Shown: positions 6,184 to 55,658 of the stretch, piece after piece | Position numbering within the stretch: position 1 is the stretch's first letter | Layout: each line of letters begins with the position of its first letter | Assembly: GCA_018400615.1 (NCBI GenBank) | Contig: JAGYML010000001.1 | Span: 7,134-71,133 of the forward strand | Origin: a bacterium | Lineage (GTDB): Bacteria; Bacillota_I; Bacilli_A; Izemoplasmatales; Izemoplasmataceae | Length of the DNA stretch: 64,000 nucleotides | Direction: 5' to 3' | Program-made: the position numbers and the translations under genes | The notes under the pieces: model-generated | Told to the model about the DNA's origin: nothing | The model's database searches: none | Seen by the model: only the letters and a program-made list of their open reading frames with translations

Positions 6184-7272
6184 ATGAAGAAAATCTATGA
6201 TGAAAGACATATTATGTTCTCAAGAGCCCGTCTTGTAAAAGGCAGTGAGCGTTACGTCACGTTTTACAAGGCCCATCCTGAATACAAAAAAGGCGACGAT
6301 GAAATAAGGGGGATGGCATTTCCTGAAAATCTCCGAAAAAGTGACATGTTCAAACGGAAGTTCTTTCCTGTATTTTCCAATAACGATGCCTACATGAAAA
6401 CCATGTATGATTTTCTTGATAGCCTCAAAAAGCCCGAGACTCCAATTGAAGTGCCTGAGACATTCAATACAAACATCAAGGGCATCGCCAAACAATACGG
6501 TGCCAAAGAAGTGGGAATTGTCAAACTTGAAACACTGCATTATTACGACACACACGGGGGTGTAAGCGAACCACTTGGCGACCTTTATGGAAAAAAAGTG
6601 GACAAGCATTATACCCACGCCATTGTCTTTTTCAAACCCATGCGTCTTGATTCCATCAACCGCTCACCGCATTTTGAAGAGCTCCTTGAAACCGAAAGTG
6701 TGTATCTTGATGTGGCTTTTATCGGCAGCCGTTTGGCAGCCTATGTAAAATCACTTGGGTATGACGCCACTTTTGCAAGTGAGATATTCTCACCTGCGCC
6801 CTTGGTGCCGCTTGCCTTTGATGGGGGTTTGGGACAGATTGGTATGACCAATCACATCGTCAATCAGACCTATGGGGATAGAATCCGCCTGGGAGCCGTG
6901 TTCACTACCCTGCCTTTAAAGCCGGATCAGCCCGTTGATTTCGGACTTGATGCCTTTTGCAAAAGATGCAGTCTCTGCCTCATGAACTGTCCGAATCAAT
7001 CCATCAAACCTTATAAGCGCAATGTAAACGGACGCGAATTTTACAAGTTTGATGATCAATCCTGTTTCAGGTTATGGAAAAACATGGGAACGGATTGTGG
7101 TGTTTGTATTCAAAGTTGTCCTTACACCCAGGGCATAGACCTTGAGACACAAAACTGGATGAAAAATGACCCTGAAAGAATTGATGCGTTCATCAAGGAC
7201 TATTTGAAAGACAAAAAAGGTCGGCGTGTATCCATCAAGACGCCCCTGGATAGTGTAAAGGGAGAGGATTAG
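6184..7272 (+). CDS. Reductive-dehalogenase / epoxyqueuosine-reductase-like 2x[4Fe-4S] protein, cytoplasmic (no TAT signal)
   Basis: C-terminal 'CKRCSLCLMNCP' and 'CGVCIQSCPY' ferredoxin-type motifs follow an RdhA/QueG-like core. There is no signal peptide. Confidence 0.6.
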   Translation: MKKIYDERHIMFSRARLVKGSERYVTFYKAHPEYKKGDDEIRGMAFPENLRKSDMFKRKFFPVFSNNDAYMKTMYDFLDSLKKPETPIEVPETFNTNIKGIAKQYGAKEVGIVKLETLHYYDTHGGVSEPLGDLYGKKVDKHYTHAIVFFKPMRLDSINRSPHFEELLETESVYLDVAFIGSRLAAYVKSLGYDATFASEIFSPAPLVPLAFDGGLGQIGMTNHIVNQTYGDRIRLGAVFTTLPLKPDQPVDFGLDAFCKRCSLCLMNCPNQSIKPYKRNVNGREFYKFDDQSCFRLWKNMGTDCGVCIQSCPYTQGIDLETQNWMKNDPERIDAFIKDYLKDKKGRRVSIKTPLDSVKGED

Positions 7273-10959: not shown

Positions 10960-11472
10960 ATGCAGACAAAAAGACTCGTTTTTCTGGCAATTATGCTGGG
11001 GGTCAGTGTGGTCTTGAACATTGTGGAACGCACGGCCATACAAGGGTTCACAGGCCTGCCCATGGTACGACTGGGCCTGGCTAATATCGTAGTGCTCATA
11101 CTGCTTTATACGTACGGCATCAAAGACGCTTTTGGTGTACTCATTATAAGAATCATTCTCGTAGGATTCGTCACGGGGCTTTTCAGTCCCGCATTCTTTC
11201 TCAGTTTGGCGGGAGGCATGGTGGCTTTTTCCTTGATGACTCTTTTCAAAAAGCTTCCGGGCTTCACCATCATCTCAGTCAGTATTATGGGGTCCCTCGG
11301 ACACGCGGTTGGTCAGATATTCATGGCAGTCTTTCTTCTCAATACAGAAGAGATTATCTTCATACTTCCTATCCTTATAGCCATCAGCATTCCAACGGGA
11401 ATCTTCACGGGGATGGTAGCGAGAAAGCTTCTTGAGTCAATGCGTGAACAGTTTACAGCTCACAGCTATTAA
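10960..11472 (+). CDS. Gx transporter family membrane protein (heptaprenyl-diphosphate-synthase-component-I-like fold)
   Basis: 5-TM protein 'LGVSVVLNIVE...VRLGLANIVVLILLY...G'. I chose the ATG at 10960. The ORF-track start at 10915 is a TTG extension. Confidence 0.75.
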   Translation: MQTKRLVFLAIMLGVSVVLNIVERTAIQGFTGLPMVRLGLANIVVLILLYTYGIKDAFGVLIIRIILVGFVTGLFSPAFFLSLAGGMVAFSLMTLFKKLPGFTIISVSIMGSLGHAVGQIFMAVFLLNTEEIIFILPILIAISIPTGIFTGMVARKLLESMREQFTAHSY

Positions 11473-11520
11473 TAATAAAACAAGCCTTGCCGATTATCCG
11501 GCAAGGCTTTTAAATTGCTT

Positions 11521-12597
11521 TTAATTGCGCCATTCCAATAAATATTCGTCAAATCCATCTGATGTTACAATGGAATCGTCTCCCAGATACCAAGTGGCTT
11601 CTACATCCTCTAGGTTATTGATGAAATCCTGTGACTCCTCAGGCTCCATCAAAAAGGCCGCTGTTGAGAGTATGTCACCGATAGACCCATCCTCTATCAG
11701 AAGAGTTACGCTTTTATGGTGATAGGAGGGTTTCAATGTATTGGGGTTAATCAGATGATGATACCTTTGAGAGTCTACTTCATAATAGCGTACGTAATCA
11801 CCGCTTGTGACAAGGGATGATCCCGAATCGAGTTTTACGGCCGCATACCCGGAAGGATTGCTTGGGTTTGTGGGATCAGTGACCCCGATGTGCCAAAGAT
11901 TCGATTCTCTTGTGGGATGGTCGCCATAGATCTCTATGTTTGAGGTGCCGGCATTGATAAGAAAACTTTCGACTTCATCATAGCTTTTCAATAAATCGGA
12001 AAGCTTGTTGGTGGCATAGCCTTTGGCAACCCCTCCAAGATTAAGATTCATATTTTCTTCCATGGTCACTTCATGGGTGTCGCCGTTCAAAGTAATGCCG
12101 TCAATTCCAACATATTCACCTGCAGCATTCAATTCAGCATCTGAAGGCACTTCACAGGTCCCCTGCTCATTGCAGGCTTCCAAATAGTCACTCCAAATAT
12201 CAAGTACGGGTCCCATAGTAATATCAAAATACCCATTGGTGAGTTCATGGTATTCAATGGAAATTTCCAACAATTCAAATAAGGCATCATCTACTTGATG
12301 GGTTTTCGTAGGCGCTTCATTCAGCGTCTTTACATTCGTTACGCCATTGTAGTTATTGTATCGGTCAGCCTGGTTGTGAATGTTTTCAAGCAGGGCTTCA
12401 CTCTTCTCAAATATTTCATCAGTGAGGCTTTCGTCTGTGGTTTCGTCCACGTATATGTCAATGGCAAACATGGAATCAAAATAAGAGGTATAAACATCCG
12501 ATGCCTTTTTGAGAGTTATGTCACTATCGGTATTACCACACGCGTTCAATGTAAAAACCATTAAAGTCAGTGATAAACCAAACATTATTTTTTTCAA
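11521..12597 (-). CDS. apbE: FAD:protein FMN transferase ApbE (Ftp), lipoprotein
   Basis: Lipobox 'FTLNAC', plus 'LGGVAKGYATNK' and 'TSGDYVRYYEVDSQRYHHLINPNT'. Confidence 0.9.
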   Translation of the reverse strand: MKKIMFGLSLTLMVFTLNACGNTDSDITLKKASDVYTSYFDSMFAIDIYVDETTDESLTDEIFEKSEALLENIHNQADRYNNYNGVTNVKTLNEAPTKTHQVDDALFELLEISIEYHELTNGYFDITMGPVLDIWSDYLEACNEQGTCEVPSDAELNAAGEYVGIDGITLNGDTHEVTMEENMNLNLGGVAKGYATNKLSDLLKSYDEVESFLINAGTSNIEIYGDHPTRESNLWHIGVTDPTNPSNPSGYAAVKLDSGSSLVTSGDYVRYYEVDSQRYHHLINPNTLKPSYHHKSVTLLIEDGSIGDILSTAAFLMEPEESQDFINNLEDVEATWYLGDDSIVTSDGFDEYLLEWRN

Positions 12598-12662
12598 AAC
12601 TATCAGTCCTTTCAGCGTGTGTTATTATATCATAATCAATGCAGTGTGGGGGAAATTTGATA

Positions 12663-12690
12663 AAGAAAAAAGAGGCCCGAAGGCCTCTTT
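12663..12690 (-). terminator. Intrinsic terminator downstream of the FMN lipoprotein gene
   Basis: Stem agaggcc (12671-12677) / ggcctct (12682-12688). On the minus strand it is followed by a U-run (plus-strand A-run 12664-12670). Confidence 0.7.
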
Positions 12691-12710
12691 AAACTATAGA
12701 AGGATATTAC

Positions 12711-13730
12711 TTATCTACCTAAAGCCATTTCGAAGGCTTCGATAACATGATCAATTGTGATTGAAACACCTGCTACTGCGTCATCAGGGCTTTCGAATTT
12801 ACCATCTACAATTGAGTAACTTTCGAGTCCTTGATTTTCTACAACTGCATCAGCGACTGCTTGCATTTGTTGTTCCCAAGCCATTTCGCCGTCTACAACG
12901 TTGCCATCTTCATCTCTGTGCATACCGTAATCTCTACCGTAGTCAAGAGACATTTTGGTAGTGATGATGCCTTCTGCTTCGCTACCATGATTCATCATAC
13001 CGTATACGGCAGTTTCAGAATCAGCTGATTTGAAGTATACTACGTCTACAGCAGCGTGAACGATATTGCCTTCTTCATTAACAGCAATGAATGCATGACC
13101 ATTTTGATGACCTTCTGAATATCCGTATTGGATACCAGGAGTGTAGTCGCCTTCGCTATCAAATTCAGGAACGTCGAAGTCTGTAGGTTCTTCGTCGCTT
13201 CCGAGTTCAGCGAGCTCGAGTGCGTTTTCCATTGCAGTGATATAGGCGCTCACTGTGATGGTAACACCCGTAATGGCGTCATCGTCAAATTTGCCATCTG
13301 CAATTGAGTATTCAGGAATACCTTGATTTTCTACTACGTCATCCGCAAGTGCGTCGACTTGATTAACCCAAAGAAGTTTGCCTTCTTCATCAGCTTCACA
13401 GTCGTCGTCTTCATCCGCGTGCATACCGTAGTCGCACCCGTCGTCGAGTGTACGTTTAGTGAGTCCGACATACGTTGTGCTTTCATCTTCCAAATCCCAC
13501 ATAGGGCCTTCAGAATCGCGTTTTGCATATACGCTGTCAATATGAACGTCTTGGATGAATCCTTCAGCATCTACATAGACATACGCAAAACTATTTCTGT
13601 TTCCTTCAGAATAGCCTAGATGAAGTCCTGGTTTATATTCACCAAGTTCTACTGGATCTTCTCCGTCATCACATGCAGCGATTGAGAAAACCATTGTAAG
13701 CATTAATAGTGCACTTAATAATTTTTTCAT
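12711..13730 (-). CDS. Lipoprotein with two tandem FMN-binding-like domains (PplA-like candidate ApbE substrate)
   Basis: Lipobox 'FSIAAC' (Cys20). There is an internal duplication (aa ~32-175 and ~196-339). Each repeat ends in a flavinylation-like motif, 'DAITGVT' (T157) and 'DAVAGVS' (S323). Confidence 0.7.
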   Translation of the reverse strand: MKKLLSALLMLTMVFSIAACDDGEDPVELGEYKPGLHLGYSEGNRNSFAYVYVDAEGFIQDVHIDSVYAKRDSEGPMWDLEDESTTYVGLTKRTLDDGCDYGMHADEDDDCEADEEGKLLWVNQVDALADDVVENQGIPEYSIADGKFDDDAITGVTITVSAYITAMENALELAELGSDEEPTDFDVPEFDSEGDYTPGIQYGYSEGHQNGHAFIAVNEEGNIVHAAVDVVYFKSADSETAVYGMMNHGSEAEGIITTKMSLDYGRDYGMHRDEDGNVVDGEMAWEQQMQAVADAVVENQGLESYSIVDGKFESPDDAVAGVSITIDHVIEAFEMALGR

Positions 13731-13774
13731 GGTTTGTTGCCTCCTAGTTATTTTTGTATTTTTAAACCACTTGT

Positions 13775-13803
13775 ATTATAAGTTTAATGCCAAGGTTTGT
13801 CAA
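13775..13803 (-). promoter_or_regulatory. Consensus sigma-A-type promoter for the di-FMN lipoprotein gene
   Basis: The minus strand reads TTGACA (13803-13798), a 17-nt spacer, then TATAAT (13780-13775). Confidence 0.6.
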
Positions 13804-13864
13804 CAATTTGCGGTAAAAAACTGTATTACAGAAGTACTTAATTTTGGTATGCGAACTAAATGCA

Positions 13865-13894
13865 TTGACCATGGCATGCGTTTATTGGTATGAT
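13865..13894 (+). promoter_or_regulatory. Putative promoter for the NusG-II / DUF1146 genes
   Basis: TTGACC (13865-13870), an 18-nt spacer, then TGgTATGAT (extended -10, 13886-13894). Confidence 0.5.
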
Positions 13895-13921
13895 ATACTA
13901 GATTCACAAGGAGGCGATTGA

Positions 13922-14368
13922 ATGAAGCGCAATGATATAAAATTGATTGCAGTACTGACCATTGTGGCACTTATCAGTGTTGTGGCCGTTCAATTGCTTC
14001 AGCGCAGTCAGTCTTATGATGACGGGATTGCCGTAGTCACGCACGGAAGCACCGAAGTGCTCAGAATTGATCTCAAGGATGGTTCGGCCTTGGTTATGGA
14101 CGAAGAAGAAGTTGTCAGCATCGATGAAGAGGCCGGCATCTATATAGTCAAAGGAAGTTATGGTGACAACAACACAGTCACCATCGGTTACGACAACGCA
14201 AACCACACCGTCCGAGTCCTTGATGAAGTCAGTCCGCAAAACATCTGCCAGAAACAAGGTGAAACCAATACACCTTTGAAACCCTTGACCTGTCTTCCCA
14301 ATGAAGTCGTCATACGCATTGAAACCCCGCTTCCTGCACCAGACGATGATGATGCCATCATCTATTAA
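13922..14368 (+). CDS. NusG domain II-containing membrane-anchored protein
   Basis: An N-terminal TM anchor, then 'SPQNICQKQGETNTPLKPLTCLPNEVVIRIE', which matches the NusG_II 'CPdqiC..G.I....ivCLPn.lvI' pattern. RBS aaggagg lies upstream. Confidence 0.7.
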   Translation: MKRNDIKLIAVLTIVALISVVAVQLLQRSQSYDDGIAVVTHGSTEVLRIDLKDGSALVMDEEEVVSIDEEAGIYIVKGSYGDNNTVTIGYDNANHTVRVLDEVSPQNICQKQGETNTPLKPLTCLPNEVVIRIETPLPAPDDDDAIIY

Positions 14369-14388
14369 AGTTTTTAAGGAGGAATACC

Positions 14389-14610
14389 ATGGACCCACTT
14401 GCACTTGCCATTTTCGAAGGTTTGCTATTTTTTATCATCTTTGCGATTACATTCAGGTCTCTCATGAGTATGGATATTAGTCCTATATTCAAAAAAGGCT
14501 CAATCCGTGAAATGCAGTTTATTTATATTTTCATGAGTATTGCAATTACTTATCTCGTACTCAAGGCCATCATGAACCTGGTTACGATTTCCATCACGAT
14601 TCTAGGCTAA
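14389..14610 (+). CDS. Small 2-TM membrane protein, DUF1146 (YwzB)-like
   Basis: 73 aa. 'SMDISPIFKKGSIREMQFIYIFMSIAI' resembles the YwzB 'vniDplikKgkv.qarll.ilL.iai' pattern. RBS aggagga lies upstream. Confidence 0.5.
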   Translation: MDPLALAIFEGLLFFIIFAITFRSLMSMDISPIFKKGSIREMQFIYIFMSIAITYLVLKAIMNLVTISITILG

Positions 14611-14611
14611 A

Positions 14612-14645
14612 TAAAAAATGCGAAAATTTTTCGCATTTTTTTTAT
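14612..14645. terminator. Bidirectional intrinsic terminator
   Basis: aaaaaatgcgaaaatttttcgcattttttt: the stem atgcgaaa / tttcgcat is flanked by A- and T-runs. It lies between convergent genes. Confidence 0.7.
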
Positions 14646-20352: not shown

Positions 20353-22944
20353 TTATTCTGAATCAATGACGTCAAGGGGTGGGAAAGTTCTGCGATCAAA
20401 CAGTTCACGGATGGTATCATACATATCCAGGTGTTCCTGGTTGTTATTTGTGAACTGTGCGTCATTTCTGATCATGTCAATGGTATGAATGGAATGGTTG
20501 ATGTTGCTGAAGAGTCGTGTGAAGCTTGTGGAGGCATAGGTATCTACAGCGTTGTAAAGGTCTTCACTTATAAGAGTGTAGTTTACTTCACCTTCGCCAC
20601 CAACGTTTTGAGCCTTGGTGTTTTCAATGCGTTGTTCACTGTATAGTTTGAGTTGTTCAAGGGAAGGCATCGCTCCATCGTTGATGAGATCATCGCTGAA
20701 GTCACCATCGGCATTGTCGAATGCGGCACTTGGTTTTTCGAAAGCGTCGCCTTTCTCAGCACGAATCAGGTGAATCCCGAATTGCGTGGTGGTGAGGTTG
20801 CTGGCGTACACTTCATCTTCATCTTCATATTCAGCAGTGTTGTAGTCTTCGTAGACTTCTTGAAGCGCCGCTACGAAATCTTCAACGTAGTTTTGCGTGT
20901 TGTTGAAATCAAGCTGGTCAGTACTTTGAGGCTGCCCTTGTTGATCGGTGCCTTCTTGAACCTGGAGGTTTTCATAGCGCAGTTCCAATCCGGCATTTTT
21001 GAATTCAGCCCATTCACTGTAATCATCGGCTGTGTCATCTTCAATGCGGGAGGCATCTTTATAGGCACTGACAATGTCTTCCATGGTTTCACCATCTTCG
21101 ATGGCATCGCGAATGGCGGTTTCAAGGTGGGCTTTTCTGGTGTTGAATTCAGTTTGTTCGCTTTCAGAGAGTCCTTCTTGGAATTCGTCGAAATCATCCG
21201 GTGCGAAGTTTTCATCCATATCCACGAATACGAGAATCTGATCGGCTTTCAAAGAGAAATAGTTTTCGTATTGTTCTTCAACGTAGTCCATGACTTTTGT
21301 AAAGTCGACCTCGTCGTATAAGTAATCATTACGAATGGTTTCCATCACGAGGGTGTTGAGGTATTCCTCTTCACCACCAAGACCGTAAGCCGCATAAAGG
21401 AATTCTTCCCAGCTCATGTCTTGTGGGGAGAAACCGTAGTTGGCGTACGCCCCGTTATTGAAGGATGTCTTGTCGGTACGCACATGTTCACGGAAGGCTT
21501 TCATCTTATCGCTTCTGTTTTCAAATACGTCACGGTTGTCACCGAACGTATCTTCGAAATAGGTACTGTCGAACAAGGTGAGTTCCTTGAGTTCTTCAAG
21601 GCTGTAAAGGGCCCCTACACGCGTTGAAGCAAAATCGAAGTAGTCATCAGCCGTTACTTCGAAATCATCAAGTGTGGCGAGTTTGTCAGGGTTGTCTTCA
21701 ATCTCTTCGTAAACTTCACTTCTGAACTGTTGTTCAAAGGAAAGAGCGAGTGGCTTGTCATGAATCTTGAGGTTGTTTTCTTCATAGAGGTTTTGCAAGA
21801 CCTGACTTGTTTGTTCACTTGTAATGAGGTCTTCAACGTAAGCGGCTTTAAGCTCTTCCAAATCCGCTTCACTCAATGTATCGAAGGCTGGCACATCGTC
21901 ACGGGTGAGTTCATACGCCATGTAACGGTAGTCGCCAATGCCTTTTGAGCTTTTCGAGTAGTCTAGGTCGCTTTCATTCAATGTGTTGAACAAGTAATCG
22001 CTTAAATCAAGAATGGCGCCTGTTCTGGAGGTTTCGCCTTCTTTTTGAAGGTCATATTGATTAAACATGAAGAAGTCGTTTTCCATCGCAACCAAATCTT
22101 CAATCGAGGTCGCTAAATCAATTTGTTCACGCTCCGGATTGAGGAAATTGTAGAGTTCGATGTAGATTTCGAGAGCTTCATCGTCTGTAAGCAACGTGGT
22201 ATTCGTATCGTCGAAATCATCACTTGCGACGTCTTCAATGGATGCGTCGCCTTCGTATAGACCCAAACCTTCATCGCCGTCTTCATTTTCGAAGTTTGGC
22301 ACGATGTTGAATCTGTTCAATACGTTCTCAAGGTCTTTTGAACTGAGGAAACGAAGCGTAATGGCTTGCATGTTGCCTTGTTCATAGTCATTGTAATACG
22401 ATTCAAGGTCCTCTTCACTTACAAAGAAATCGCTTGCTTCATCAGTTGTGAGATGCATGTCTTTGGTGTATGTGTCCTTGGCAATGACCAAGCGCATGAA
22501 AGCTTCAACGGAGGCATCATCATTGGGATCGAAACCGTTCATCACGAGTGTATCGTGATAATTTTGTTCCATATCTTCAATTTGACGCTCGCTGAATTCG
22601 GCAATTTCCGCGTCATCAGTAGTGCCATACGTCATTTCCGTAATCTGTTCATCGATTTCATCCTGTGTAACTTCGTTGATGTAATCTTTGTCTAGATAGT
22701 TGGAAAGCAGTTCGGTATCGATGTAGTTTTGAAGGTGCGAAAGGCCATCCATGACTTTAACACGTTCATAGACATCTTTTCTGGATAGATCATACCCATC
22801 ATAAGTCATGAACGTTTCGTCAGGATTTGAAACGGTGGGGGTTGAGTTGTCTTTTTGAAGTGCATTGCATGCAACCGACATGACAATCACTACAACAATG
22901 ATGCTGAGGACAATAGCGCCTCTTTTAATTAGTTTTGGGTCCAT
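20353..22944 (-). CDS. Giant, highly acidic PrsA/SurA-like lipoprotein with divergent parvulin-type PPIase domain
   Basis: The ATG at 22944 has RBS aaggag. Signal and lipobox 'IVMSVAC'. A PrsA-like N-terminal segment reads 'LSRKDVYERVKVMDGLSHLQNYIDTELL'. A C-terminal parvulin-like string reads 'KADQILVFV...DIVSAYKDAS...TTQFGIHLIRAEKG'. Confidence 0.55.
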   Translation of the reverse strand: MDPKLIKRGAIVLSIIVVVIVMSVACNALQKDNSTPTVSNPDETFMTYDGYDLSRKDVYERVKVMDGLSHLQNYIDTELLSNYLDKDYINEVTQDEIDEQITEMTYGTTDDAEIAEFSERQIEDMEQNYHDTLVMNGFDPNDDASVEAFMRLVIAKDTYTKDMHLTTDEASDFFVSEEDLESYYNDYEQGNMQAITLRFLSSKDLENVLNRFNIVPNFENEDGDEGLGLYEGDASIEDVASDDFDDTNTTLLTDDEALEIYIELYNFLNPEREQIDLATSIEDLVAMENDFFMFNQYDLQKEGETSRTGAILDLSDYLFNTLNESDLDYSKSSKGIGDYRYMAYELTRDDVPAFDTLSEADLEELKAAYVEDLITSEQTSQVLQNLYEENNLKIHDKPLALSFEQQFRSEVYEEIEDNPDKLATLDDFEVTADDYFDFASTRVGALYSLEELKELTLFDSTYFEDTFGDNRDVFENRSDKMKAFREHVRTDKTSFNNGAYANYGFSPQDMSWEEFLYAAYGLGGEEEYLNTLVMETIRNDYLYDEVDFTKVMDYVEEQYENYFSLKADQILVFVDMDENFAPDDFDEFQEGLSESEQTEFNTRKAHLETAIRDAIEDGETMEDIVSAYKDASRIEDDTADDYSEWAEFKNAGLELRYENLQVQEGTDQQGQPQSTDQLDFNNTQNYVEDFVAALQEVYEDYNTAEYEDEDEVYASNLTTTQFGIHLIRAEKGDAFEKPSAAFDNADGDFSDDLINDGAMPSLEQLKLYSEQRIENTKAQNVGGEGEVNYTLISEDLYNAVDTYASTSFTRLFSNINHSIHTIDMIRNDAQFTNNNQEHLDMYDTIRELFDRRTFPPLDVIDSE

Positions 22945-23121
22945 ATCTGAATCACTCCTTGTATAATTACGCAATATATATAGTACCATTAATTATTTTT
23001 TAATACAACTAGAAAAACACGGCATTTATAGGTTGCATTCTTTAAGCCATGTCGTGCAGTTCAATATATTGCATTCATGGCCATATGGTGTATAATAATA
23101 CCCGAATTGGAAGTGAAGATT

Positions 23122-24903: not shown

Positions 24904-24951
24904 TTACTTGTATGACAAAACGATACAAATTTAATAATGGAGGTAGTTGCA

Positions 24952-27900
24952 ATGGCGACTAAAAAAGAGTTTCAGTCAATGGACGGGAACCAGGCAGCGG
25001 CACACGCAGCCTACGCGTTCACGGAAGTAGCGGGTATTTACCCGATTACGCCATCCTCACCCATGGCTGAACATACCGACCTTTGGGCATCACAAGGAAA
25101 GAAAAATCTTTTCGGCATGCCAGTGAAGGTCATTGAAATGCAATCAGAAGCAGGTGCGGCCGGTACGGTGCACGGATCGCTTCAGGCGGGTGCGCTCACT
25201 ACGACTTACACAGCATCCCAAGGGCTATTACTCAAATTGCCTAACATGTATAAAATTGCTGGGGAACTTCTCCCAGGCGTCATCCACGTGGCTTCAAGAA
25301 GTATTGCCGTACAGGCACTTTCAATCTTCGGAGACCACCAAGACGTTATGGCGACCCGTCAATCAGGGTTCGCAATGCTCGCATCAGGCTCAGTTCAACA
25401 AACAATGGATCTTGCAGGACTTGCGCATTTGACCGCAATCAAATCAAGCATTCCATTCATTCATTTCTTCGATGGGTTCCGTACTTCTCACGAAGTGAAC
25501 AAAATCGAAGTGATGGATTATGACGTATATGATCGTCTTGTTGACAGAGATGCCGTACGCAATTTCAAAAAACGTGCGCTCAACTCAGCCAACCCTGTAA
25601 CCCGTGGGTCTGCACAAAACGATGATGTTTACATGCAGGGACGCGAACTTCAGGAAAAATACTACAAAGCCATCCCTGACATCATGAATGACTATATGCA
25701 AGAAATCACCAAAGAGACCGGCCGCGAATATGCACCGTTCGTCTATTATGGTGATGAAAAAGCTGAAGACGTCGTTGTCGCAATGGGCTCCGTTACGGAA
25801 ACCATCCGTGAAACCGTCGATTACCTTAACAATGTAGAAGGCCGCAAAGTGGGACTTTTAAATGTCCATCTTTACCGTCCTTTCAGCATCGAATACTTCA
25901 TGAACGCCCTTCCTGACAACGTCAAACGCATCGCGGTACTCGACAGAACCAAGGAAAACGGTTCAGTCGGTGAACCGCTGTATCTTGACGTACGAAGCGT
26001 ATTCTACGGCAAAAAAGATGCCCCAGTGGTTATCGGAGGCCGTTATGGACTTTCAAGCAAAGACACCACACCTGCCCAAATCAAAGCGGTTTTTGACAAC
26101 CTTCAAGGTGAACAGAAAAACGGCTTCACGATCGGTATCAATGACGATGTGAACCACACATCCCTTGATGAGCAAGCGCCTATTTCCACCATCGATCCTT
26201 CAACCACTGAACTCCTGTTCTACGGATTTGGTAGTGACGGTACGGTCGGTGCGTCCAAAAACACCATCAAAATCATCGGTGACAACACCGATTTGTATGC
26301 ACAAGGCTACGCGGCGTATGACTCCCGCAAATCAGGTGGGGTTACGCGTTTCCACATGCGTTTCAGCGAACAGCCAATCAGAAGCACCTACTTTGTAAAC
26401 CATCCTCACTTCGTATCGTGCTCAAAAGATTCCTATCTTGAAAAATACGATATGATTGCCGGTATGCGTGATGGCGGTACTTTCCTTCTCAATACCGTAC
26501 GTCCTAAAGATGAAGTTGAAGACCTTCTTCCAAACAAAGTCAAGAAACAACTTGCGCAAAAAGGCGGAAAATTCTACATCATCAACGCCGTCAAACTTGC
26601 TGAGGAAATCGGACTTGGCGAACGCATCAACACCATCATGCAATCTGCCTTCTTCGCACTCAACGAACACATCGTAGGATACGACGAAGCACAGAAACTC
26701 ATGAAGGAATACGCTAAAAAAGCGTACGGCCGCAAAGGTGAAGAAATCGTCAACAAGAACTACCAGGCGATTGAAAAAGGTAAAGAAGGCCTTATTGAAA
26801 TCGAAGTAAAAGATTCCTGGAAAGACCTCAAAGTTGAATCAGAAGAAAACGAAAACGCAAAACCTGGTTTCGTCGCTGATATCGCTGAACCGGTCAACCA
26901 GCTTGAAGGTTACAGTCTTCCAACATCCGCTTTTGAAGATTATGCAGATGGCACTATGGAAAACGGCTCTACAGCCTATGAAAAACGCGGCGTGGCGAAC
27001 TACACACCACGTTGGAACCCTGAAACCTGTATCCAATGTAACCAATGTGCCTTCGCATGTCCTCACGGCGTCATCCGTCCATACCTTCTCACTGATGAAG
27101 AAATGGCCAACGCCCCTGAAGGCATGGCTACGCTTGATGCTCGCGGAAAAGGCATTGACGACCTCAAATACAAAATCCAGATTTCAACCCTTGACTGCAC
27201 AGGCTGCGGTGTTTGTGTCTCCGTATGTCCTGCGAAACCGGAAAAAGCACTTTCCATGCAGCCAATCGGTGAAGAAATCGCCAACGGCGAAATCGAAAAC
27301 GCCAAATACCTTTACAACGAAGTGTCTCCTAAAGACAACCTTGTCAAGAAAACCAATGCCAAAAACAGCCAGTTTGCCAAACCGCTCTTTGAATTCTCAG
27401 GCGCTTGTGCAGGCTGTGGTGAAACACCATACATCAAACTCGTCACCCAACTTTACGGTGAACGCATGATGATCGCCAATGCTACGGGTTGTTCTTCAAT
27501 CTACGGTGGATCATTCCCTGCTACACCTTACACTACCAACGACGACGGACGCGGTCCGGCATGGGCCAACAGCCTATTCGAAGACAACGCGGAATTCGGC
27601 TTCGGTATGCGTCATGGTCTTGAAACTCAACGGGACCACTTGCATTTCCTTTATGAAGAAAACAAGGACAAACTCCCTAAAGAACTTGCAGACCTCTTCG
27701 AATCATGGGTTGAAAACCGTGATGACGGTGACAAGACCCTTGAAATATCCAAACAGATGCGTCCAATGATCGATGAGCTTGAAGGCGACCTCGGCGAACA
27801 ATTCAAAGACCTCGCACCATTCATCGTCAAACAATCCAACTGGATTATCGGCGGAGACGGCTGGGCTTACGACATCGGCTTCGGTGGACTTGACCACGTT

Positions 27901-28509
27901 ATCGCTAGTGGTGAAGATGTCAATATTCTCGTACTCGATACCCAGGTTTATTCAAACACTGGTGGACAGTCATCCAAAGCGGCTGGTAAAGGTTCAATCG
28001 CCGCATTCACCGCTTCTGGTAAAACCGGCAACCAAAAAGACCTTGCGTCTATGGCCATGACTTATGGTCACGTGTATGTCGCTCAAGTGTCACACGGCGC
28101 GTCACAACAACAAGTGCTTAAAGCCATTCGCGAGGCTGAGGCGTATCCAGGACCAAGTATCGTGATCGGATACAGCCCATGTATCGCCCACAAAATCAAA
28201 GGTGGTCTCACCAACTCTGCGAACCAGGCGAAACTCGCGGTTCAATCAGGCTACTGGCCAACCTTCCGTTTCGACCCACGCCTTGAAGACGAAGGAAAGA
28301 ATCCTTTCCAACTCGACTCCAAAGCGCCTAAGTGGGAGAAATACGATGAGTTCCTCATGAACGAAGCCCGCTATTCACAGCTCAAAGACATCAACCCTAA
28401 AAAAGCGGACGAACTTCTAGAGGCCAACAAGCAAGCTGCAAAACGCCGCTACAGACGTTACAAGCGTTATGAAGCGATGGATTACTCACAAGAAGGCGAA
28501 CAAGAATAA
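24952..28509 (+). CDS. nifJ: Pyruvate:ferredoxin (flavodoxin) oxidoreductase, single-polypeptide type
   Basis: ~1185 aa. 'DGNQAAAHAAYAF', two ferredoxin motifs 'CIQCNQCAFACPH' and 'CTGCGVCVSVCP', and the TPP region 'GGDGWAYDIGFGGLDH'. The ATG at 24952 follows ggagg. Confidence 0.95.
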   Translation: MATKKEFQSMDGNQAAAHAAYAFTEVAGIYPITPSSPMAEHTDLWASQGKKNLFGMPVKVIEMQSEAGAAGTVHGSLQAGALTTTYTASQGLLLKLPNMYKIAGELLPGVIHVASRSIAVQALSIFGDHQDVMATRQSGFAMLASGSVQQTMDLAGLAHLTAIKSSIPFIHFFDGFRTSHEVNKIEVMDYDVYDRLVDRDAVRNFKKRALNSANPVTRGSAQNDDVYMQGRELQEKYYKAIPDIMNDYMQEITKETGREYAPFVYYGDEKAEDVVVAMGSVTETIRETVDYLNNVEGRKVGLLNVHLYRPFSIEYFMNALPDNVKRIAVLDRTKENGSVGEPLYLDVRSVFYGKKDAPVVIGGRYGLSSKDTTPAQIKAVFDNLQGEQKNGFTIGINDDVNHTSLDEQAPISTIDPSTTELLFYGFGSDGTVGASKNTIKIIGDNTDLYAQGYAAYDSRKSGGVTRFHMRFSEQPIRSTYFVNHPHFVSCSKDSYLEKYDMIAGMRDGGTFLLNTVRPKDEVEDLLPNKVKKQLAQKGGKFYIINAVKLAEEIGLGERINTIMQSAFFALNEHIVGYDEAQKLMKEYAKKAYGRKGEEIVNKNYQAIEKGKEGLIEIEVKDSWKDLKVESEENENAKPGFVADIAEPVNQLEGYSLPTSAFEDYADGTMENGSTAYEKRGVANYTPRWNPETCIQCNQCAFACPHGVIRPYLLTDEEMANAPEGMATLDARGKGIDDLKYKIQISTLDCTGCGVCVSVCPAKPEKALSMQPIGEEIANGEIENAKYLYNEVSPKDNLVKKTNAKNSQFAKPLFEFSGACAGCGETPYIKLVTQLYGERMMIANATGCSSIYGGSFPATPYTTNDDGRGPAWANSLFEDNAEFGFGMRHGLETQRDHLHFLYEENKDKLPKELADLFESWVENRDDGDKTLEISKQMRPMIDELEGDLGEQFKDLAPFIVKQSNWIIGGDGWAYDIGFGGLDHVIASGEDVNILVLDTQVYSNTGGQSSKAAGKGSIAAFTASGKTGNQKDLASMAMTYGHVYVAQVSHGASQQQVLKAIREAEAYPGPSIVIGYSPCIAHKIKGGLTNSANQAKLAVQSGYWPTFRFDPRLEDEGKNPFQLDSKAPKWEKYDEFLMNEARYSQLKDINPKKADELLEANKQAAKRRYRRYKRYEAMDYSQEGEQE

Positions 28510-29168: not shown

Positions 29169-29197
29169 AAAAAAAAGCCCAAAACGGGCTTTTTTTA
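29169..29197. terminator. Bidirectional intrinsic terminator
   Basis: aaaaaaaagcccaaaacgggcttttttt between convergent genes. Confidence 0.7.
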
Positions 29198-30574
29198 TTG
29201 ACTGATGATCGATTGAGCTGCAATCTGTCCCATGACAAGACAATCCGTCAGTCCCAGACTGCCCAGGCGAGAAGCCCCGTGGACGCCTCCTGTGACTTCA
29301 CCTGCCGCATAAAGCCCGGGAATAGGGGTTCCATCCTTTTTAAGCACACGCGCTGAGGCATCGATGCTGAGGCCGCCCATGGTGTAGTGGACTTTCGGCC
29401 AGACACGCATGGCGTAATAAGGTGGCGTTTCAATCGGGGTGGCATCGTCCAGAGGTTTCGCAAAATCTTTGTCTTCGTTGTGCCATACGAAGTCGTTGAA
29501 GCGTGTCACAGTCTTTTCAAGGGAAGGCGCGTCAAGCCCATAATTTTCACTGAGGGATTTCAGCCCTTCAAAGGTTTTGACAACGCCTTTTTTCAAGGCT
29601 TTTTCCAGATTCATATTGGCCTCTTTTACCGCTCGCGTGTCAGCGAGCGCAATCACTGGATGGCCCACTTTCAAAATAGCGTTTGAAATGGTTTTGCGAT
29701 CTGCGAGTTCGTTGGTAAAGCGTTTCGACGTATCGGGATCCACGAGTATGCCCCTTTGAAGGGCAATGTAATCCGCAAACTTCGGTCCGTCCCCAAAACC
29801 TTTTTCATCAGGGGATGTCCAGGGTGCGAGACTGATGCGATCAAGGTCTTTGGTGTCTGCGCCATGTTTGATGGCGGATTTCAGCACTTCAGCAGTCGCA
29901 GACGCGATATTGGTCGTGTCAATCGAGGCGTCCAACAAGGCATCCTGTTTTTCTCTGAACGTGGTATCCGCCCCAAAACCTCCACTTGTGAGGATGACGC
30001 CTTTTTTGGCTTTGTATAGGGTTTCCTTCTCTGGTAAGGCTTTATTGAATGCATAGGGATGATAGGCCTTGACGCCTGTTATACTCATTGTTTCATCACT
30101 CAACAGGTCACTGACGTAGGTTTTGGTTTTCAAAACGCCTCCCATTTCAAGGAAGGTTTCTTCAGCCATCTTGATCATGGTACGTCCACTCAGTGCTTGG
30201 GGTGTGTAACATCTTGGGACACTGTGGCCCCCGAAAATATCGACTCTGTCCATGTAGGGGACTCCGATGGACTTCGTCCATTCATAGCCCTCTTTGGCGT
30301 GTTTGGTGATGGTATCCACCAGGGCTTCGTCATTCAAGCCCTTGCCAGCGTTTAACATGTCCGCTTTCATCGCTTCTATGGAATCTTCAATGCCTCTGGC
30401 TTTTTGCAAATCCGTCTCGGGTGCCGCGATGCCTCCATCGCTTAGCCACGTGTTGCCACCGGACTTATTCATTTTCTCAAGTATGAGGGTGCTAAGGCCA
30501 TGACTTCTGCATTCAATTCCGGCTCTCAGTCCTGCGATACCACTGCCTACAATTATCACATCATATGGTTTCAT
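29195..30574 (-). CDS. FAD-dependent flavocytochrome-c-type reductase flavoprotein (fumarate/urocanate reductase family), no signal peptide
   Basis: N-terminal 'YDVIIVGSGIAGLRAG', 'HYTMGGLSID' and 'GLYAAGEVTGGVHGASRLG'. The ATG at 30574 has RBS aagaggtga. Confidence 0.8.
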   Translation of the reverse strand: MKPYDVIIVGSGIAGLRAGIECRSHGLSTLILEKMNKSGGNTWLSDGGIAAPETDLQKARGIEDSIEAMKADMLNAGKGLNDEALVDTITKHAKEGYEWTKSIGVPYMDRVDIFGGHSVPRCYTPQALSGRTMIKMAEETFLEMGGVLKTKTYVSDLLSDETMSITGVKAYHPYAFNKALPEKETLYKAKKGVILTSGGFGADTTFREKQDALLDASIDTTNIASATAEVLKSAIKHGADTKDLDRISLAPWTSPDEKGFGDGPKFADYIALQRGILVDPDTSKRFTNELADRKTISNAILKVGHPVIALADTRAVKEANMNLEKALKKGVVKTFEGLKSLSENYGLDAPSLEKTVTRFNDFVWHNEDKDFAKPLDDATPIETPPYYAMRVWPKVHYTMGGLSIDASARVLKKDGTPIPGLYAAGEVTGGVHGASRLGSLGLTDCLVMGQIAAQSIISQ

Positions 30575-30717
30575 ACACTCACCTCTTGAATTCATCATAG
30601 CATTATTGTGAAGCATAGCCAATGAATTCCAGTGTGTGCGCTTAAAAAATAGTCATATCATTAGCAAAATAAAGCGAAATCCTTTAAAATGATGATTGAG
30701 TTTAAGGAGGTAAATTT

Positions 30718-54244: not shown

Positions 54245-54271
54245 AAAAAGTCCGCGTTTTGGACTTTTTTA
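54243..54271. terminator. Bidirectional intrinsic terminator
   Basis: aaaaaaagtccgcgttttggactttttt between convergent genes. Confidence 0.65.
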
Positions 54272-54892
54272 TTTATGGATAGCATAATCGATGGCATTGA
54301 CGGGACAGTTTCTAATCCATTCGCCGCATGCCAAGCATTCCTTCGCCTCAATAAAGTACCGTTTGCCTTCATGATGAACGGCCTCTGTTGGACAGACTTC
54401 TTCACATTTGCCACACCCCACACAAAGCGATTCATCGATTGCCACATCGCGTTTTGGTTTGCGAGCCGTGAATGAGAGAATCGTACCATAGGGACATACA
54501 TGTCTGTGAAAAAAGGCTTCATCAAACAACAGGGCAACCACAATGCCACCAAAGAAGAGCCCTGGAAGAATGGGGAGGATGTTTCCGGTAATTTGAGTCA
54601 CTGCGAACCCAGCGATAAATAATACCAGAATGAAATAGCGGAACCAGCCCTTCGTGAAAAATTTTGGAATAGGAATCTCTTTTATATTAAACTTTCGTTT
54701 GGCATAACTTATGGGCTTCATCGCAGTATTGATTGGGCATGCATAGCCACAGTATAGCCTTGAGAAAAACGGAGATATCAATACTCCAATTAAAAACACT
54801 GCCATCCAAAGTTGGATGCGATTGGTGATGAAAAGCCCGATGAAAAGGACTAAAAAAACCATTTGAATGGTGATTTGAACTTTTTTATTCAT
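54269..54892 (-). CDS. Polytopic membrane 4Fe-4S binding protein (NapH/MauN-like)
   Basis: 'CGYACP' and 'CPYGT' loop motifs, plus C-terminal 'CVGCGKCEEVCP' and 'CLACGEWIRNCP'. The ATG at 54892 has RBS ggaggt. Confidence 0.75.
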   Translation of the reverse strand: MNKKVQITIQMVFLVLFIGLFITNRIQLWMAVFLIGVLISPFFSRLYCGYACPINTAMKPISYAKRKFNIKEIPIPKFFTKGWFRYFILVLFIAGFAVTQITGNILPILPGLFFGGIVVALLFDEAFFHRHVCPYGTILSFTARKPKRDVAIDESLCVGCGKCEEVCPTEAVHHEGKRYFIEAKECLACGEWIRNCPVNAIDYAIHK

Positions 54893-54974
54893 ACTGTGTA
54901 CCTCCAATGTATTTGTAGTATACTATGAGTAGACACCCTTAATGTGTTACTCAAGTCACACTTTGGAGGATTGT

Positions 54975-55658
54975 ATGCAATTAATCAATCAACTGGTACG
55001 TACTTGCCGTCTCTTTGATGGTATGGAACACTCCAATTTGGAGAAGCAGATGAAACAAAAACGCCTTACAGCACGCACCTATGACGCCACGGATTATATA
55101 GATATCACGGACGCCAATGCATTGGTATGCATTCTTGCAGGGTCGCTTGATATTATGGAAATGTCTGAGGCAGGCAATTTGATGCTTATGGAGCATTTTG
55201 AAAAAGGGGCTTGCATTGGGGCGAACACCCTCTTTTCAAAAACGGGTGTCACCAATGTGATAGGCAGGACTTACACGGGTTTGAAAGTTGTCATGATTCA
55301 TAGAGACGCCGTGTTCGACCTGCTTCGCCGCGACACGCAATTTTTGAAGAATTTTCTTGAACTCGTATCAACAAGAAGCACAATGTTGACACGGAAAATA
55401 AGCAACCTCTCCTTTACAAGTCTGGAAGACAAAATCATGCATTACCTAGAGGGGTTATCCGTGCGTCAAGATACCCATCACGTAAGGCTTTATCTGAGTA
55501 AAAAACGTCTTGCGGAGCTTTTCGGTGTTGCGCGCACATCACTAAGCAGACGGCTGAGCGAGATGGAAAGAAAAGGACTCCTTGAAGTCAGAAAAGACAC
55601 CATTGTTTTAAACCCATTATTTTTCAAGATCCATAAAAAAAACTTTGCCAATGTGTGA
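54975..55658 (+). CDS. Crp/Fnr family transcriptional regulator
   Basis: A cNMP-binding-like beta-roll is followed by the HTH 'KKRLAELFGVARTSLSRRLSEMERKGLL'. The ATG at 54975 follows ggagga. Confidence 0.8.
   Translation: MQLINQLVRTCRLFDGMEHSNLEKQMKQKRLTARTYDATDYIDITDANALVCILAGSLDIMEMSEAGNLMLMEHFEKGACIGANTLFSKTGVTNVIGRTYTGLKVVMIHRDAVFDLLRRDTQFLKNFLELVSTRSTMLTRKISNLSFTSLEDKIMHYLEGLSVRQDTHHVRLYLSKKRLAELFGVARTSLSRRLSEMERKGLLEVRKDTIVLNPLFFKIHKKNFANV

Follow-up and report, generated by a model that had tools for sequence, protein, structure and literature searches.

A cluster of five genes at positions 10960-14610 of a 64,000-nucleotide stretch of Izemoplasmataceae DNA (GenBank assembly GCA_018400615.1, contig JAGYML010000001.1; this whole stretch is called the window hereafter) encodes an EetB-family protein, an ApbE-type flavin transferase, a two-domain flavin lipoprotein, an EetA-family protein and a small DUF1146 protein. 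By the families of its products, the locus belongs to a known kind, in which the EetB/EetA pair for the export of flavin adenine dinucleotide (FAD) is combined with ApbE and with a two-flavin lipoprotein of the FMN-bind2 type. We think that it probably provides one half of a Gram-positive-type system for extracytosolic electron transfer by flavins, namely the supply and the attachment of flavin, together with the surface substrate of this half. A first-pass annotation made from the sequence alone had listed EetA and EetB among the proteins missing from the window. This had to be revised: PF07456 proteins are EetB and PF07009 proteins are labelled EetA by Rivera-Lugo et al. 2023 (PMC9973259 and its Data Set S1). 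Thus, the annotation of the two genes beside apbE has to be corrected from "Gx transporter" and "NusG domain II" to EetB and EetA, and with this correction the locus is no longer an orphan but can be recognised as a module for FAD export and flavinylation.

In the mechanism that we propose, EetB would act, by analogy with its Listeria counterpart, as a subunit similar to the substrate-binding (S) component of energy-coupling factor (ECF) transporters that, together with ECF-T and ECF-A components encoded elsewhere, carries FAD from the cytosol to the membrane's outer face. The lipidated ApbE would then attach flavin mononucleotide (FMN) from FAD to T157 and S323 of the neighbouring lipoprotein, as the conserved motif and the gene adjacency suggest. 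At the surface of what is probably a wall-less, Izemoplasmatales-like cell, the two FMN-bind2 domains would pack with pseudo-symmetry as a two-flavin unit, from which electrons would pass to other flavoproteins or to acceptors outside the cell. EetA may be an accessory extracytosolic partner of EetB. The electrons would come from a membrane conduit outside the locus, most likely from an Rnf-type complex encoded elsewhere in the genome, and the same ApbE and EetB would also serve the maturation of RnfG and RnfD by flavinylation.

Predicted flavin supply and flavin attachment

All five open reading frames (ORFs) were found at their expected positions, and each scored above the Pfam gathering threshold that we used for the assignment. 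The profile searches (FMN_bind, ApbE, Hpre_diP_synt_I, NusG_II, DUF1146) thus bore out the five families that had been proposed; a scan of the module with NCBIfam contributed nothing beyond a DUF1146 match and an ApbE match below the threshold. The eetB gene (10960-11472, forward strand) matches PF07456 (Hpre_diP_synt_I, the "Gx transporter" family) with 118.7 bits at a cut-off of 30, and the alignment covers profile positions 2-147 of 147. Since eetB homologues were defined as PF07456 proteins by Rivera-Lugo et al. 2023 (PMC9973259), the gene is a member of the EetB family by this operational definition. The same study has shown that EetB of Listeria is needed for the flavinylation of PplA, a defect that is partly rescued by external FAD, that the protein binds FAD and resembles ECF-S subunits in its structural model, and that it works with the ECF-T protein FmnA and with EcfA/A' to export FAD to the ApbE protein FmnB. 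Moreover, homologues of eetB were found there in 4,214 genomes; eetA is a neighbour of eetB in 3,328 of these, and apbE in 2,169. In the window, apbE is convergent with eetB at a distance of 49 nt and eetA lies 2.4 kb away, an arrangement that is kept in the relatives. By analogy, the predicted role of EetB is flavin supply through FAD export, not electron conduction. Of the two roles that had been considered for the Gx transporter, membrane conduit or flavin supply, the latter was therefore the right one, as the EetB family exports FAD. The protein has about six hydrophobic helices according to both hydropathy and a single-sequence structure model, rather than the five given before, and it has a weak match to ECF_trnsprt (E 0.044).

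The eetA gene (13922-14368, forward strand; 55.0 bits to PF07009 at a cut-off of 29.6) encodes one N-terminal transmembrane helix (residues 8-26), followed by an extracytosolic NusG_II domain with the signature ICQKQG...TCLPN. Data Set S1 of Rivera-Lugo et al. 2023 (PMC9973259) labels NusG_II proteins EetA, and with its PF07009 domain behind a single helix and its position near eetB the window gene is a member of the EetA family. Nine EetA orthologues with 41-86% identity all retain the cysteines C109 and C124 of the motif SPxNxC…TCLPN, which may be joined in an extracytosolic disulfide or belong to a ligand site. The deletion of eetA in Listeria had no phenotype in extracellular electron transfer (EET), and the gene is dispensable there. 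The earlier statement that the Gx transporter and NusG-II genes have no assigned mechanism has been superseded for EetB, which takes part in FAD export in Listeria.

The eetA gene is followed after 20 nt, in one operon, by the gene for the DUF1146 protein (14389-14610, forward strand; PF06612, YwzB-like; 36.0 bits) with two transmembrane helices. This adjacency survives in three relatives in which the locus is rearranged (L013, L015 and L016). Since about 20 kb around the module are syntenic throughout the lineage, it says little about the function of DUF1146. In the eetB neighbourhoods of Data Set S1, PF06612 occurs 0 times and PF07009 at least 164 times among the matches listed. DUF1146 had been counted as a component of the module; it is tied to it by lineage-wide synteny and showed no recurrent association outside the lineage among these listed matches, and it is probably just an operon neighbour. 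These observations bear on the idea that electrons cross the membrane to the lipoprotein through a conduit made of the Gx transporter, the NusG-II protein and DUF1146. The lack of Rnf, Nqr and Ndh2 in the window, the two invariant cysteines in the extracytosolic domain of EetA and the preserved eetA-DUF1146 pair would be in line with such a conduit. We consider it very improbable, however: EetB of Listeria is an FAD-binding export subunit and the loss of eetA is without consequence for EET there, the three proteins have PF07456, PF07009 and PF06612 as their only Pfam matches and no recognisable site for a redox cofactor, DUF1146 does not occur among the listed matches of the published eetB neighbourhoods, and adjacency weighs little in a syntenic region. 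Nor are these membrane proteins the only candidates for a conduit, as had been concluded before, with a NapH-like protein in the window, the Rnf complexes reported for the lineage and an RnfC/D-like pair of a sister clade as alternatives (see below).

The apbE gene (11521-12597, reverse strand, TTG start) matches its Pfam family with 208.3 bits, and the alignment covers profile positions 5-265 of 266. The lipobox LNAC (…TLNAC) and the strings GGVAKGYA, TSGDY and HHLINP that had been read in the protein are all present, and the solved ApbE structures 1VRM (E 5.8e-35) and 7ESA (E 4e-31) were matched. The product is thus predicted to be a full-length flavin transferase of the ApbE/FmnB type (FAD:protein FMN transferase) on a lipidated protein. 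In relatives, ApbE is often 424-475 amino acids long (L003, L005, L007 and L016, e.g. L016:13018-14445) versus 358 in the window. The additional length includes a C-terminal hydrophobic anchor in the two copies that were read (L016 and L023); the window ApbE relies on the lipobox alone.

The presumed substrate of ApbE is the 339-amino acid lipoprotein (12711-13730, reverse strand) with the lipobox IAAC (…SIAAC) and two repeats of about 160 residues that are 46% identical (E 4e-38). Its FMN_bind match (27.8 bits at a cut-off of 22) spans residues 115-172 in the first repeat. The predicted FMN sites are T157 in DAITGVT (codons at 13260-13280) and S323 in DAVAGVS (12762-12782). A word-indexed search of 5.8 billion proteins yielded 24 close homologues of the lipoprotein. 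In 21 of them, down to 39% identity, D151, G155, V156, D317, G321 and V322 are invariant and residues 157 and 323 are always serine or threonine. This conservation supports the sites that had been predicted in the first-pass annotation. A full search with a hidden Markov model (HMM) extended the family to 733 representatives, of which 173 reached E ≤ 1e-10; the proteins carry a single repeat, two repeats or many. Huang et al. 2024 (PMC11334425) have described the FMN-bind2 subtype, with domains of about 160 residues that occur in even numbers and pack as a pseudo-symmetric two-flavin unit. By its domain size and repeat number, and by an AlphaFold model with confident packing between the domains (predicted template modelling score, pTM, 0.79), the lipoprotein fits such a unit. 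The only neighbour in the PDB, by structure or by sequence, is 2KZX from C. thermocellum (fold search E 1.1e-2, probability 0.99), which shares the pattern K…Y.M…W.EQ…D-A-I-S-G-A-T with the motif DAISGATI. The remaining fold-search matches of the two-domain model in the PDB were dismissed as noise.

Several observations weigh against this interpretation. (i) The motifs depart from the D-x-x-[ST]-G-A-[ST] pattern, once in repeat 1 and twice in repeat 2: valine replaces alanine in both motifs, and alanine replaces [ST] in repeat 2 only. In the wider family (P0025-P0179), the residue preceding the modified serine or threonine is valine in 173 cases, cysteine in 39 and alanine in 32. Because valine dominates there, G-V-[ST] appears to be a trait of the subfamily and not a quirk of the window gene. 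In the fumarate reductase of K. pneumoniae, the change from alanine to valine in the motif lowered flavinylation to about 50% and did not abolish it (review PMC12052999). (ii) Repeat 2 alone has no Pfam FMN_bind match at E 0.01. Of the two FMN-binding-like repeats that had been described, the first thus passes the FMN_bind threshold, and the second stays below it on its own despite its 46% identity to the first. (iii) The lipoprotein is called "PplA-like" for its architecture only, and no protein named PplA or Cad was present among the profile matches of the wider family that were looked up. (iv) The single-sequence model of EetB is too poor to test the ECF-S fold (pLDDT, the predicted score in the local distance difference test, 64; pTM 0.34). 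(v) The scans of the window revealed no ECF-T (CbiQ-type) and no EcfA-type gene; its only ATP-binding cassette ATPases are SufC-like and MalK-like. (vi) Finally, no Rnf, Nqr, Ndh2, Dmk or quinone-synthesis gene was found among the window ORFs of at least 140 amino acids, the size range covered by our survey of electron-input genes. Since neither was found in the window, both the energising ECF-T/ECF-A module and the electron source are assumed to be encoded elsewhere. As an observation on the wider family, many multi-repeat FMN-bind2-like proteins carry several G-V-[ST] repeats followed by a single terminal G-A-[ST] repeat.

The genes of the module are likely organised in about four transcription units (degV-eetB, lipoprotein, apbE and eetA-DUF1146) rather than the three counted before; the divergent promoters and the terminators that had been reported are indeed present in the sequence. 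(i) The eetB gene starts 55 nt after the upstream degV gene, there is no forward-strand promoter match for it, and it is probably co-transcribed with degV. A strong hairpin terminator with a 12-bp stem (11482-11509, reverse strand) lies between the convergent eetB and apbE genes. (ii) The promoter of the lipoprotein gene agrees perfectly, at 12/12 positions, with the sigma-70 consensus TTGACA-17-TATAAT (13775-13803, reverse strand), and a hairpin terminator follows the gene (12669-12690, reverse strand). (iii) Downstream of this terminator, an extended -10 element (TGATATAAT, 12624-12632, reverse strand) is a candidate for apbE's own promoter, as read from the sequence. (iv) The eetA-DUF1146 operon is preceded by a promoter-like site, TTGACC-18-TATGAT with a TG (13865-13894, forward strand), divergent from the lipoprotein promoter, and is closed by a terminator hairpin (14613-14641, forward strand). 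Across the 64 kb, none of the Rfam families attained its gathering score, and so there was neither a tRNA nor a riboswitch or leader; this holds for an FMN riboswitch close to the module as well.

The search for electron input within the window

The search for an electron source was based on Pfam scans of 45 of the larger window ORFs; the other large genes, located at 4.6 to 20.3 kb of the window, were annotated through syntenic relatives. The earlier statement that Rnf, Nqr, Ndh2 and Dmk are lacking from the window was upheld by these scans and by a tblastn search with the RnfC/D-like proteins of the sister clade (from locus L026), which returned nothing in the window. The cluster contains no RnfB, NqrF or PF03116 membrane subunit in the Pfam scans and is thus outside the RNF, NQR and NQR/RNF-like classes, and no NADH dehydrogenase (K03885) with a transmembrane helix, by which Meheust et al. 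2021 recognise the Listeria type of EET, is present in the 64-kb window. The missing conduit is a negative observation on the 64-kb window, not on the genome.

One potential conduit is encoded far from the module. The gene at 54269-54907 (reverse strand) encodes a NapH-like membrane polyferredoxin (PF12801, Fer4_5) with two ferredoxin-type 4Fe-4S motifs, CxxCP motifs and four transmembrane helices. This protein might take up electrons with its cytoplasmic 4Fe-4S clusters, for instance from ferredoxin reduced by pyruvate:ferredoxin oxidoreductase (PFOR), and transfer them across the membrane to the lipoprotein in trans. Such proteins are a described class of flavinylation-associated conduits, and the FMN-binding protein is a separate gene in 539 of their clusters (Meheust et al. 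2021). Moreover, PFOR is encoded in the window (24937-28509), and the closest relative (P0202, 73,656-bp contig) keeps the NapH-like gene and the module on one contig. We nevertheless regard this route as unlikely. The gene is the sole PF12801 gene of the window and sits 40 kb from the module, with no FMN_bind neighbour; its neighbours are galactokinase, RNase T-like, Crp-like and RNase J genes, unrelated to flavinylation, with the Crp-like regulator (54942-55658, forward strand) divergent from it. In addition, 18 stand-alone homologues of the protein were found, and none of them (0/18) carries a fused FMN_bind domain.

Two other redox proteins of the window were set aside. The FAD_binding_2 protein of the fumarate reductase type (29195-30622, reverse strand; 475 amino acids, 243.8 bits), lying some 700 nt downstream of the PFOR gene and flanked by an MgtC-family gene and the SUF operon, is cytosolic and was rejected as a surface reductase partner, since it has neither a signal peptide nor a flavinylation motif. 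The cytosolic 362-amino acid protein with two 4Fe-4S motifs (6184-7272, forward strand), which most relatives likewise have 4-5 kb upstream of the module, has only a Fer4_7 match (31.9 bits); it is unrelated to the RnfC-like protein of the sister clade, as their alignment is limited to the cluster motifs. A very acidic protein of 878 amino acids without a Pfam match (20353-22989, reverse strand), with one N-terminal transmembrane or lipobox-like segment, has a counterpart of 807-864 amino acids in the same place in every relative.

The locus variant of a sister clade

Synteny of the module was seen in at least 16 Izemoplasmatales-like species known from metagenome-assembled genomes (MAGs), and it extends over about 20 kb around the module. 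The MAGs that contain homologues are labelled Izemoplasmatales, Izemoplasmataceae, "Mollicutes bacterium" or "Bacillales bacterium", and many of them stem from soda-lake sediment. The lipoprotein of the closest relative is 87% identical (JASMTQ010000086.1). In one relative, two paralogous genes for di-FMN-bind2 lipoproteins flank the eetA-DUF1146 pair (L016:10001-12911), and L013 and L015 share the reordering of this pair relative to the lipoprotein gene.

In four loci with the same flanking genes (L026, L027, L029 and L030), RnfC-like and RnfD-like genes are located between apbE and the flavoprotein gene (L026:12601-14777; L027:10596-12717; L029:8853-10990; L030:8853-10996). L026 and L027 had been found earlier through their flavoproteins, and L029 and L030 came from a search with the RnfD-like protein that gave 18 clusters; the pair lies inside the module in 4/4 of the inspected loci. 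The RnfC-like proteins have 379-397 amino acids; the L026 copy, which was the one scanned, has weak RnfC_N and SLBB matches and two 4Fe-4S motifs, and no match to the NADH-binding domain Complex1_51K. The RnfD-like proteins (328-331 amino acids) match PF03116, and the one copy that was read, from L026, has no SGAT-type flavinylation site. The flavoprotein of these loci is a single-domain protein (171-175 amino acids), a divergent form of 257 amino acids, or a protein of 852 amino acids with six matched FMN-bind2 stretches, five of which (5/6) contain the motif; the two-domain form is never present in the four loci. In a neighbour-joining tree of three flanking genes, the four loci stand apart from all loci of the window type. 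Because the tree is unrooted, loss and gain of the RnfC/D-like pair are indistinguishable; the window's clade lacks the pair at this position.

The sister-clade locus points to an Rnf-type membrane conduit that feeds this family of flavoproteins. Moreover, published Izemoplasmatales genomes keep Rnf complexes, with "two Rnf complexes" in three Izimaplasma genomes. Since the sister clade has the RnfC/D-like pair in the locus and the order keeps Rnf, an unlinked Rnf complex would be the most economical electron source for the window lipoprotein. The same Rnf complex is at the centre of a different view, according to which ApbE, EetB and EetA are a general maturation machinery for unlinked Rnf and the lipoprotein receives no electrons from within the cell; its job would then be to sense or buffer the external redox state, for instance, or to bind or salvage flavin. 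This view gains from the presence of eetB beside rnf in 572 Clostridia genomes (PMC9973259), from the retention of Rnf in the order, from the lipoprotein's own perfect promoter and terminator, separate from apbE, and from the fact that a category of clusters that have no core transmembrane system has been recognised before. It is at odds with the position of the flavoprotein homologue next to the RnfC/D-like pair in the sister clade, which argues for inside-out delivery, and with the invariance of both flavinylation motifs across the clade, and we judge it rather unlikely.

Because the window's clade combines a two-domain flavoprotein with the lack of an RnfC/D-like pair in the locus, it is tempting to speculate that the electrons reach the di-flavin lipoprotein outside the ten described flavinylation-associated conduits, for example by a direct hand-off from the outward-facing flavin of RnfG in a canonical Rnf complex or through the conserved cysteine pair of EetA; we give this idea a similarly small chance. 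Separately, the sister-clade pair may be an undescribed two-subunit conduit: the NQR/RNF-like definition of Meheust et al. 2021 requires PF03116 fused to PF00175, and a stand-alone RnfC/D-like pair falls outside it.

Comparison with known systems

One of the closest models for the flavin-supply and flavin-attachment functions that we assign to the window locus is the EET locus of Listeria monocytogenes (FmnB, PplA, EetA, EetB, FmnA, Ndh2 and DmkA/B; Light 2018, Rivera-Lugo 2023). Both have an ApbE-type lipoprotein, EetB, EetA and a lipoprotein with two flavinylation sites, which are predicted in our case, and the same logic of FAD export, flavinylation and cell-surface electron relay may be expected by analogy. 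Unlike the Listeria locus, the window is devoid of a membrane-anchored Ndh2, of genes for demethylmenaquinone (DMK) synthesis and of a dedicated ECF-T protein (FmnA), its lipoprotein is of the 160-residue FMN-bind2 type with G-V-[ST] motifs, and its genes are distributed over about four transcription units on both strands. The Erysipelotrichaceae protein with two FMN-bind2 domains (Huang et al. 2024, mSystems, PMC11334425) likewise has domains of about 160 residues in even number and a predicted two-flavin unit; it is set beside our lipoprotein by description only, that is by domain size, repeat architecture and the account given in that paper. The NQR/RNF-like and NapH-like systems (Meheust et al. 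2021) share the combination of ApbE with an extracytosolic FMN-binding protein, which in their case is fed by a simple membrane conduit. Following the published definitions, neither conduit is present in the window cluster, which has no PF03116 gene; the only PF12801 gene is the one 40 kb away.

A further comparison is offered by the sister clade (Izemoplasmataceae/Acholeplasmatales-like MAGs). Its locus has the same flanks and the order eetB, apbE, flavoprotein, eetA-DUF1146, and in L027 and L030 the flavoprotein is 46-49% identical to repeat 1 of the window lipoprotein; unlike the window, it contains the RnfC/D-like pair and no two-domain flavoprotein. With the module itself assigned to a known kind, the remaining novelty lies in how the clades differ by the RnfC/D-like variant and in what EetA and DUF1146 do. 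A single order of probably wall-less fermenters thus provides a natural comparison between loci with an RnfC/D-like pair and a one-domain or multi-repeat flavoprotein and loci without the pair and with a two-domain flavoprotein, and this contrast gives a tangible handle on the question of how electrons are supplied to surface flavoproteins of the FMN-bind2 type.

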